From the NCBI RefSeq assembly GCF_055900595.2, contig NZ_CM148325.1: a DNA stretch of 64,000 bases; one strand, written 5' to 3'. A program made the position numbers and the translations under genes. This document shows positions 22,425 to 24,485 of this stretch, piece after piece (position 1 is the first letter of the stretch; each line of letters starts with the position of its first letter). The notes under the pieces were generated by a model, which saw nothing but the letters and a program-made list of their open reading frames with translations, was not told the origin of the DNA and ran no database searches.

Positions 22425-22629
22425 AATTCTCTCGTTCTGATGACAGGTCAGATCCGCTTCACCTGATGAAGCGGTTAGGGGAGTGCCCCCACTTTAAGGG
22501 CGGGCATTGTAGCGCAATCGGTGGGGTTGACTCCAGTGACAATGTTAAGGGAAAGACTGAGCGCATTTATTTCGTTTTGATTCCGATAGTCGTCAGGTTC
22601 AATTGTTATCAGTTGACCTTAATTTGGTG

Positions 22630-24030
22630 TTAAAGAAAGGGAATATAACCCCATAACTTGTTGTGAAGTTCCGGATTGCAGGTAAAAAGCGCCTGAAGTT
22701 GCTGACGCTGAGGAGCATTTGGTTGAATGTCCGAAAGATTGAAATTGCGTTGCCATATCGCGAGCTGTTTACCTGCAAATTCTTCAGTTAGCTTGTGTTG
22801 CGATTGCAGAAGAAGAATTAAACAGGCCCATTTGTTCAAGTTATGATACAGCCGACAATATGCGCAAGCATGTTTAACTGATGGTGCGTTTTCCAGCAAC
22901 TGACGTATTTCCTCGAACGTGAGCGGAACTCGACACCATACACAGATGTTAACCATAAATCGAAGCCCGGAGGCGTCCGGGTTAGCCAGTGTGGTCAGAA
23001 TAATCCCTTTGACACCACCATCAGGATTGGCTTTCGCAAGAATATACATAGCGGCTAATCGCAGTGGGAATACATCCTGTGATAATCCCCATTCTGCCAG
23101 TTTTAAAATATTGGCATCATGAATGGAGTCCAGCCCGTATAAAGCTGCCCGGCGCTGTGAGGGAGTATATTCAGTCGAGGTGACAACATGACGCCAGAAT
23201 TGCACAACATCCATGACGTCATTAAGCATGTTTTTAGCGCGTAGACGGATCAACATATTGTTATCCAGCAGTAATGCGCTGTACAACGCCGGAGGAATTT
23301 CTATAGCTCGGTCAGTAAGGCTAAACAACGTTGCTTGTCGAATACGCGGCCAGCGGTCTTTTAACAGACGAGTTAATACCGCTTCGCTTAACGGTAATTG
23401 TTGACGCAGCCAGTGGGTGACCGCCAGCATTCGTAAACCTTCGTCGGGCTGCTTGAGTATTAAAAGCAGCGAAGATTCATCATTAAAGTAGCCATATTCA
23501 ATCAGCGTTTGTAATACTGCGCGGGAGAGTTTTTTATCAGGGCAAGTAAGCCAACACGTTAATTGTGGACGGCTATTTTCTGTCAATAAAAATCTAAGTA
23601 TCTCGTCTACAAATGCACGGTGATCGTAACGCTGGCATTGGAGAAGGTTACGTATCAAGGGAAGATTAACGGCAAATGCCGCTGCATTCTTATCCTTCTT
23701 TAAATGACGTAACGCTATGGTTGCAGCAAGGCGAACCTCTTTTACCCAGTCATTAGCTGCAAGTAATAATTCTTCTATAGCTGCAACATCCTCTTTTTGT
23801 CCCAGACATTGCACGGCCTTTTCTCGTATATATCCATTGTGGTGATGGGTAAGCTGGCAAAGAACCAGAGTATCGTTGAGATCACAATCATGCGCTATAT
23901 AATTGCCTGGATCGGCTATCATCGACTGGAGTTGTTGCTGGATAAGAAATAATTCACAGTCAACAGAATTATTCATTTCGACGTTAAACAAAACCCTGCG
24001 TGTAAATAATGTACGCAATCCTTTGAGCAT
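22630..24030 (-). CDS. Hypothetical 466-aa protein with HEAT/ARM-like repeat character; not expected at this position from recalled K-12 synteny
   Basis: Long ORF with aagga RBS 7 nt upstream of ATG; lower GC than neighbours; repeat-like segment EKAVQCLGQKEDVAAIEELLLAANDWVKEVRLAATIALRHL. Confidence 0.7.
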   Translation of the reverse strand: MLKGLRTLFTRRVLFNVEMNNSVDCELFLIQQQLQSMIADPGNYIAHDCDLNDTLVLCQLTHHHNGYIREKAVQCLGQKEDVAAIEELLLAANDWVKEVRLAATIALRHLKKDKNAAAFAVNLPLIRNLLQCQRYDHRAFVDEILRFLLTENSRPQLTCWLTCPDKKLSRAVLQTLIEYGYFNDESSLLLILKQPDEGLRMLAVTHWLRQQLPLSEAVLTRLLKDRWPRIRQATLFSLTDRAIEIPPALYSALLLDNNMLIRLRAKNMLNDVMDVVQFWRHVVTSTEYTPSQRRAALYGLDSIHDANILKLAEWGLSQDVFPLRLAAMYILAKANPDGGVKGIILTTLANPDASGLRFMVNICVWCRVPLTFEEIRQLLENAPSVKHACAYCRLYHNLNKWACLILLLQSQHKLTEEFAGKQLAIWQRNFNLSDIQPNAPQRQQLQALFTCNPELHNKLWGYIPFL

Positions 24031-24107
24031 AATTTTCCTTATCAGTTATGAGGAGAAAACTCATTTCATGATTAATAATTTCCTGAGGGATAGTAACTCT
24101 GTGATGA

Positions 24108-24145
24108 GAGAAAATAAAGCCGGACGCCAACAACCTACGCCCGGC
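24108..24145 (-). terminator. Rho-independent terminator of yegP
   Basis: Hairpin gccggacgcc...ggcgtccggc region (24119-24145) followed on the minus strand by a T-rich tract (plus-strand A-run 24108-24118). Confidence 0.55.
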
Positions 24146-24152
24146 ATCGTAA

Positions 24153-24485
24153 TTACGTATTGTCTTTCACCGTCTGGCTTGTGCCATTGGCTTTAACGGA
24201 GGCAATTCCGGTTTCACGAGATTGCGCGGTGGCGTACATCTGGCTGGAGCCGATAATTTGATGATTGGCGGCTTTCAGATTGAAATAGAATTTGCCGTTG
24301 CTTGCTGTTTTTTTCTCATAGCGTTCTTCTTGTGGGCTGTTGCTACGCACTGACGCGATGCCCTTTTCCGCAGAGGCTTTTGAGGTATACAGCTCGCTGG
24401 TGAGGATAGTCTCACCATTGCCCGCTTTTAGCACAAACCGGAATTGATTATCACTGCTCCTACTGAGTTCAAACCAACCAGCCAT
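24153..24485 (-). CDS. yegP: UPF0339/DUF1508 protein YegP (110 aa)
   Basis: Internal ATG (MAGWFELSRSSDNQFRFVLKAGNGE...), duplicated domain. Confidence 0.85.
   Translation of the reverse strand: MAGWFELSRSSDNQFRFVLKAGNGETILTSELYTSKASAEKGIASVRSNSPQEERYEKKTASNGKFYFNLKAANHQIIGSSQMYATAQSRETGIASVKANGTSQTVKDNT

Follow-up and report, generated by a model that had tools for sequence, protein, structure and literature searches.

The gene that lies between yegQ and yegP in a 64,000-nucleotide stretch of Escherichia coli DNA (contig NZ_CM148325.1 of RefSeq assembly GCF_055900595.2; hereafter the window) encodes a HEAT-repeat protein. It belongs to a family that in other bacteria is repeatedly linked to Rtc RNA-repair operons, a linkage that is firmly established. 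We suggest that the window gene is a solo copy of an Rtc-associated accessory factor, probably RNA- or RtcB-binding, in a gene replacement hotspot between yegP and yegQ. We hold this reading at about even confidence, because the clade of the E. coli locus consists of solo genes and because we infer the binding partner and the RNA-repair role of the E. coli copy. The gene and its protein are laid out as follows.

22630..24030, minus strand: HEAT-repeat coding sequence (CDS), 466 amino acids (aa), ATG start, from the open reading frame (ORF) list of the window
24031..24040, minus strand: ribosome-binding region of the HEAT gene, with AAGGA at 24036-24040 and a 5-nt spacer to the ATG
Residues ~55-385 of the protein: PBS-type HEAT repeats
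Residues ~390-465 of the protein: family-specific C-terminal cap (NKW..LI.LL ... W..FN.S..P...Q)

The link to RNA repair comes from the genomic context of relatives. A scan of GTDB species genomes yielded 23 Enterobacterales loci, exact-protein look-up gave further ones, and 80 more came from metagenomes, which were scanned for the conserved peptide NDWVPQVR with a 21-sequence alignment. ORFs were called, the family gene was located with a hidden Markov model (HMM) built from alignment A4, and the loci were grouped into 65 lineages at 60% identity. When all genes within 4 kb of the family gene were clustered over 125 loci, without prior labels, RtcB emerged as the commonest recurrent neighbour (11 lineages). 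LysR-type regulators came second (8 lineages) and were judged to be generic, and the next clusters were, in order, a 340-aa RtcA, RlaP and RtcR. Both RtcA, the RNA 3'-phosphate cyclase, and the activator RtcR score above the NCBIfam cut-off (418 and 848 bits, respectively), while RlaP was identified by Pfam PF10127 and RtcB also by Pfam. The NCBIfam matches of the RtcB-family and Rsr-like proteins are significant, yet lie under the curated equivalog cut-offs. In three lineages an Rsr/Ro-like gene accompanies the family gene. Apart from the generic LysR-type regulators and the Rtc genes, no neighbour family recurred across many lineages in the 125 loci.

The order of these operons is a divergent rtcR followed by (ro)-rtcB-HEAT-(214-aa unknown)-rlaP-rtcA, all co-oriented and often with gaps of 0-30 bp. 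Pectobacterium has the arrangement rtcR / rtcB-(rlaP)-HEAT in seven of its nine loci. We recounted the Rtc genes by tblastn, which avoids the shadow-ORF artefacts of high-GC contigs, and found them within 5 kb in 12 of the 53 lineages whose context spans 1 kb or more, or 15 of 65 overall. Among the thousands of genes of a genome there are typically one or two copies of RtcB; chance adjacency to it would be well below 1% per lineage, a rough estimate made without a matched control. The Rtc-linked lineages are spread over at least four separate clades of a rough neighbour-joining tree, and the Enterobacterales clade that contains Pectobacterium is sister to the clade of the E. coli locus.

Two further observations concern these operons. 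Between the HEAT gene and rlaP, the rtc operons of three lineages (L115:6220-6798, L116:4451-5095 and L121:9229-9831) code for an unannotated protein of 192-214 aa. It has no NCBIfam or PHROG match and is a candidate for another Rtc accessory factor. A metagenomic contig (L039:1-13356) carries a distant family member (25% identity) within a dense island of RNA-repair and ADP-ribose-processing genes, which includes a Pnkp-like HD+AAA_33 protein, RNA ligase, a PrfH-like RF-1 domain protein, RtcB and an HTH-RlaP-HEAT string, along with SIMPL, KptA/Tpt1, ADP-ribosylglycohydrolase, NADAR, NUDIX-NrtR and Band_7.

The position of the HEAT gene resembles that of known Rtc accessory genes. Ro/Rsr is encoded upstream of rtcB and RlaP between rtcB and rtcA, and the HEAT relatives hold the same interposed, co-oriented slot in rtcR-controlled operons, whereas the window copy stands outside any rtc operon. 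Additional ORFs interposed in rtc operons have been reported, and Ro discussed, by Das & Shuman (2013), and the rtcB-rlaP-rtcA order is described in the RlaP preprint. No HEAT-repeat component of rtc operons is named in the searchable literature, a scope without the Burroughs & Aravind 2016 survey. The family differs from both Ro/TROVE and RlaP in having no sequence match to either, and the window protein has no NCBIfam or Pfam match to the TROVE plus vWA architecture of Ro60. Ro itself consists of HEAT-like repeats, and its ligands are RNAs that are damaged or misfolded. Since both genes co-occur in some operons, the HEAT family is not a substitute for Ro by homology.

The family is large and has no characterised member; this too is firmly established. 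HMMER, run exhaustively over 1.84 billion cluster representatives, found 1,681 members at E<=0.001, of which 456 reach E<=1e-10. Among the matches listed, the proteins are typically 430-550 aa long and mostly 24-40% identical, and most align over residues ~57-450. The description of the gene as an orphan in the initial annotation is therefore incorrect, though no well-characterised family matched it with confidence. A word-indexed homologue search, even with the family profile, returned close Escherichia/Shigella relatives only. The window protein aligns with positions 7-435 of the 449 of the family HMM (445 bits), with the motifs of the C-terminal cap present. Its isoelectric point (pI) is 8.5, and the family median is 9.0.

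The window protein is predicted with high confidence to be an all-alpha PBS-type HEAT solenoid, in agreement with the HEAT/PBS-lyase-like repeats first noticed in its sequence. HEAT_2 is its sole Pfam match above threshold (8e-5) and is found at E<=0.001 in 56 of 63 family members; the protein combines this profile match (HEAT_2/HEAT_PBS) with the tandem ~31-residue helix-turn-helix repeats of the PBS type. Against known structures the family profile matches alphaRep (E 7e-42), CpcE (9e-10) and YibA (1e-7). The AlphaFold2 (AF2) model, made with a 63-sequence alignment, consists entirely of helical hairpins, with a predicted local distance difference test score (pLDDT) of 91.8 and a predicted template modelling score (pTM) of 0.83. 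Since residues 1-20 are of low confidence or disordered in this model, Met19 may be the true start. The PDB sequence search returned designed alphaRep and other HEAT proteins only, and fold-level matches were generic. NCBIfam gave nothing beyond a sub-threshold repeat match, PHROGs gave no match, and profile searches of the libraries found no enzymatic or effector domain. The AlkC/AlkD type of HEAT-like-repeat DNA glycosylase was considered and rejected, as the Pfam DNA_alkylation match is at E 0.11 (12.6 bits) over a partial region.

PBS-lyase-type HEAT proteins (HEAT_2/HEAT_PBS), such as alphaRep, E. coli YibA and CpcE/F, share the repeat type and its consensus D..VR..A...LG. The window protein differs from them in being longer (~14 repeats), in its non-repeat C-terminal cap, in its invariant non-consensus residues and in standing outside a bilin-lyase context. 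Much of the conservation in the family is that of the HEAT consensus itself (D..VR..A), but H63, N65, W95 and H137 as well as N399-K400-W401, W426, N431, P437 and Q441 in the cap are invariant or near-invariant outside this consensus. The clade of the E. coli locus retains all of the family-specific motifs, including the C-terminal cap.

We propose that the HEAT protein, a presumably cytoplasmic, basic, all-alpha solenoid of a widespread bacterial family, would provide a binding platform when RNA is damaged. It could hold broken or misfolded tRNA, tmRNA or rRNA; alternatively, it could bind RtcB or RlaP. The cell's own Rtc enzymes would then seal RNA that has been cut by ribonuclease toxins or stress. 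The solo copy of E. coli appears to have been gained and swapped by homologous recombination via the conserved flanks; it is kept by purifying selection where intact and is decaying in several lineages. A conserved ligand is favoured over a fast-coevolving toxin, because of the basic pI and the conserved non-repeat residues. A wider hypothesis, which we consider possible but doubtful, is that the whole family is an unrecognised Rtc accessory that binds RNA or RtcB/RlaP and recognises cleaved tRNA/rRNA. The solo copies would then be portable RNA-damage protection, swapped between species against ribonuclease toxins and acting in trans with chromosomal rtcBA.

For bacterial Rtc RNA repair, neither the helpers nor the physiological targets are well defined as yet. 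A conserved HEAT protein that many lineages encode between rtcB and rlaP/rtcA is a concrete candidate for the missing substrate-recognition or scaffolding factor, and the natural E. coli carriers and non-carriers of the solo copy are a ready genetic system.

The locus of the solo copy has the following features in the window.

22516..24118, no strand: variable segment of 1,603 bp, in place of which 'empty' E. coli alleles hold ~21 unrelated bp
22516..22546, no strand: ~30 bp just inside the yegQ-side junction, common to all occupied alleles and missing from empty ones
24111..24144, minus strand: intrinsic terminator of yegP, with hairpin 24119-24144 and T-run 24111-24118
24153..24485, minus strand: yegP, conserved upstream flank
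21063..22424, minus strand: yegQ/trhP (tRNA U34 hydroxylase), conserved downstream flank

The two flanks are identified from the window ORFs and from the annotation of E. coli M160133 (RefSeq), which is 100% identical over the region. M160133 has the same three genes in the same order, so the placement of a 466-aa minus-strand ORF between yegQ and yegP is borne out, and it lists the encoded protein as 'HEAT repeat domain-containing protein' (WP_045145364.1). The initial annotation was also right that the gene has its own ribosome-binding site, that a separate yegP terminator lies between yegP and the HEAT gene, and that its GC content is below that of the flanks. The last of these is 44.1%, with 40.7% at third codon positions (GC3), versus 53-55% and GC3 of 58-67% for flanking genes (yegQ 53.6%/62.8%, baeR 53.3%/59.8%). 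Further upstream of yegP in the window are baeR, baeS and mdtD.

Though it is intact in the window, the gene is a rare accessory one, and this is firmly established. In a census of 5,426 complete E. coli genomes it is present at full length (at least 80% of the gene) in 39 and as any fragment in 96. It is thus absent from 99% of complete genomes, and K-12 is also without it. At the nucleotide level the E. coli alleles are 93-100% identical, and several copies are split into two CDSs by frameshift, truncated, or interrupted by IS1.

In an alignment of the yegP-yegQ gap across E. coli, 22516-24118 is the part not shared with the empty allele, flanked by homologous sequence from ...GTAGCGC (22515) on one side and from GCCGGACGCC (24119) on the other. 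The stem of the yegP terminator, GCCGGGCG...CGTCCGGC, is conserved core sequence, and its T-run falls within the variable segment. The gap is firmly shown to be a multi-allelic replacement hotspot with empty, parDE and HEAT mosaic states. The empty state (~147 bp) is found in EDL933 and CCUG 73778. A parD/parE toxin-antitoxin (TA) pair of the RelE/ParE family occupies the gap in 1,844 of the 5,426 genomes (34%), among them strain M8 (L003:3103-3697) and K-12 DH5alpha (L129:2009-2603, by Prokaryotic Genome Annotation Pipeline (PGAP) annotation), at the site that equals 22516-24118 of the window. The K-12 order with yegP and yegQ adjacent, as given in the initial annotation, is thus mistaken for DH5alpha; this pair is omitted from the classical K-12 gene order. 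The HEAT gene stands alone in the window strain and in E7-1N7, is accompanied by a parD fragment in AZ147, and in GF43 by a 201-aa gene on the opposite strand. Other states combine a gene for a TPR-like 239-aa protein with a HEAT remnant and the 201-aa gene, or IS1 with a HEAT remnant and a parD fragment; IS1 is seen only in this decayed variant of another strain. Since 22516..22546 is common to the HEAT-only, parDE, HEAT plus parD fragment and HEAT plus 201-aa gene alleles and is missing from empty ones, the occupied states share ancestry.

Two small genes recur beside the HEAT gene in this gap. A hypothetical protein of 137-201 aa, without NCBIfam or PHROG match, is encoded on the opposite strand between the HEAT gene and yegQ in several variants (L128:1859-2464 (+), L038:1858-2463, L014:5360-5965 and L006:9429-9842). 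The gene for a secreted TPR-like protein of 228-239 aa, which bears a signal peptide, is directly upstream of the HEAT gene, with a gap of 4-10 bp, in certain E. coli strains and also in a different enterobacterial species (L038:3272-3991 (-), L005:7310-7996 and L006:7271-7990). This protein is probably a homologue of Salmonella t0736, which is commonly present at the yegQ locus (PMC7400221).

The baeR-X-HEAT-yegQ position holds orthologues in other Enterobacteriaceae as well, with these identities to the HEAT protein.

Locus L006: 85% aa identity
Locus L005: 60% aa identity
Locus L015, 'Enterobacteriaceae bacterium UBA3516': 41% aa identity
Escherichia sp. MOD1-EC7003: 95%, gene split

Thus, the view of a single-gene insert in a conserved locus stands as far as the gene is a rare accessory one, but the site is multi-allelic and is shared with other species. 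The flanking yegQ and baeR proteins are ~92% identical to those of E. coli in all three non-Escherichia loci, and we take L005 and L006 to be one species because they have the same flank identities. By the Nei-Gojobori method, the HEAT gene has a ratio of nonsynonymous to synonymous divergence (dN/dS) of 0.10-0.29 (between E. coli alleles, 0.23-0.29), versus 0.00-0.07 for yegQ and baeR. The HEAT gene is under purifying but relaxed selection. Between E. coli and L006, dS is 0.29 for HEAT, 0.60 for yegQ and 1.39 for baeR. The HEAT value is below that of the flanks, and therefore the allele appears to have crossed species after their divergence. L005 and L006 have a dS of only 0.18 for yegQ and 0.05 for baeR, but of 2.5 for HEAT, and therefore deeply diverged allelic classes coexist within one species.

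Neither an integrase nor a transposase is encoded beside the HEAT gene among the window ORFs, nor does a tRNA gene adjoin it. The junctions have only 10-12-mer direct repeats at chance level, and a search there for inverted repeats likewise gave nothing above chance. The locus thus lacks these hallmarks of a genomic island or mobile element; the absence of mobile-element genes and direct repeats had been noted at first, when the way of arrival was called unclear. This combination of the dS pattern and the lack of mobile-element signatures makes the arrival explicable, and points to allele replacement through homologous recombination in the conserved flanks. The gap is a clean multi-allelic hotspot, apparently kept by flank recombination and not by mobile elements, and knowing this helps in annotating pan-genomes.

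Several results weigh against an RNA-repair role for the E. coli copy. About three quarters of the family lineages, including the entire clade of the E. coli locus, are solo genes in unrelated contexts, and given these contexts the E. coli copy may hold a different role. Queries with RtcB, RtcA, RlaP, RtcR and Ro gave zero tblastn matches across the 64-kb window, and scans for sigma-70 and sigma-54 sites upstream of the HEAT gene found no promoter on the coding strand. The AF2 model of a Pectobacterium RtcB-(GGGGS)6-HEAT fusion has a pTM of 0.55 with the RtcB half poorly modelled, and gives no support for a fixed complex. In addition, the raised dN/dS, the deep divergence within a species, the proximity to TA modules and the position of a Serratia homologue at the end of a contact-dependent inhibition (CDI) locus would also suit a role in conflict or immunity.

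The main rival is accordingly an orphan immunity protein, in which the solenoid would neutralise a cytoplasm-acting polymorphic toxin of competitors (a CDI, type VI secretion system (T6SS) or Rhs effector). In Salmonella, an islet of orphan immunity genes of the CDI/T6SS type sits at yegQ (PMC7400221), and HEAT-repeat immunity proteins are documented ('Imm-HEAT', Tdi5a; PMC3482391, PMC13392607). These are likewise all-alpha HEAT-like binders from variable loci (Zhang et al. 2012). The dS of 2.5 between two strains of one species, the dN/dS above that of the flanks, the patchy strain distribution and the decaying copies would all fit. In Serratia, the family gene is ~330 bp downstream of a CDI locus (L026:18-9661 and L020:5323-9683), after two genes, one for a CdiA-like protein of 3,083 aa whose C-terminus bears a deaminase-like toxin motif (HAE...CNYC) and one for a putative immunity protein of 131 aa. 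The expected place of an Imm-HEAT gene is immediately after a toxin-domain gene, cognate or in an orphan array; the Serratia copy is set apart from CdiA by a small gene. A toxin locus is near only this one of the 53 lineages with context, no toxin family recurs among the neighbours, and the window copy adjoins yegP and yegQ and no toxin gene. The family is also much larger than Imm-HEAT and conserved over phyla-level divergence. Its proteins are long (440-550 aa) and basic (pI ~9) and keep the same motifs across 22-40% identity, which is atypical of fast-coevolving immunity proteins; a basic protein would be an odd inhibitor of basic nucleases, and dN/dS stays below 0.3. We therefore consider immunity distinctly unlikely, though the ideas of repair and immunity are biologically close, since countering ribonuclease toxins is a presumed role of Rtc systems.

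Somewhat less unlikely is a function outside RNA repair, as a generic scaffold or regulator that binds proteins, with the clade of the yegQ locus in a different role, possibly together with the TPR-like or the 201-aa protein. The solo context throughout this clade, the generic fold matches and the TPR-like gene 4-10 bp upstream in L005, L006 and L038 would agree with it. But the window and most E. coli carriers lack the TPR partner, its signal peptide would place it in a different compartment, and the clade keeps every family-specific motif, including the cap. We consider it very unlikely that the gene is a non-functional hitch-hiker, a decaying remnant of a larger islet that persists only by linkage. 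The broken copies of other strains, the rarity of the gene and the empty promoter scan speak for this, but the window copy is full length against the family HMM and has a good ribosome-binding site, and the dN/dS among E. coli alleles indicates continued purifying selection. Marginally less probable still is a single-gene anti-phage defence protein. A low-GC accessory gene in a variable hotspot beside TA modules would be a natural candidate, and PADLOC gives a weak match to HEAT-ARM_XIII (1.9e-7). This match (26.9 bits) covers positions 582-768, or 187 of 1,972, and is repeat-only; BrxF is at E 0.034, and no PADLOC match is near full length. The protein also has neither an enzymatic or effector domain nor a PHROG match, and the recurrent neighbours of the family are genes of RNA repair, not of defence. 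Of the roles suggested at first (defence, regulatory or scaffold), the scaffold or binding one is thus favoured, but tied to RNA repair, which was not among them. The accessory factor of Rtc repair remains our preferred reading of the window gene.

The other contexts of relatives are diverse. In Affinibrenneria the homologue is beside a Schlafen-like helicase and a deformylase, and the remaining looked-up relatives are solo HEAT genes. S. grimesii has orphan toxin-tip/immunity modules. In Rahnella the homologue adjoins the anaerobic heme-degradation genes chuW/chuX/chuY, on a side of the operon that varies by species (L017:7315-11317 and L034:9986-13677); a heme link of the family was set aside, since this proximity is limited to one genus. 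We also rejected a shared HEAT and TA module between E. coli parDE and a TA pair beside the Pectobacterium homologue, as the toxins show only remote superfamily similarity (E 2e-4) and the antitoxins have none.

Further features lie downstream of yegQ. The small RNA CyaR/RyeE is encoded at window positions 20895-20980 (-) (Rfam, 99.8 bits). The P2-remnant gene ogrK is beside CyaR in K-12 and E7-1N7 and is absent from the annotation of the window strain. Between yegS and CyaR, at 19800-20800, the GC content falls to 35-41% around a yegR-like ORF (20157..20543, +).

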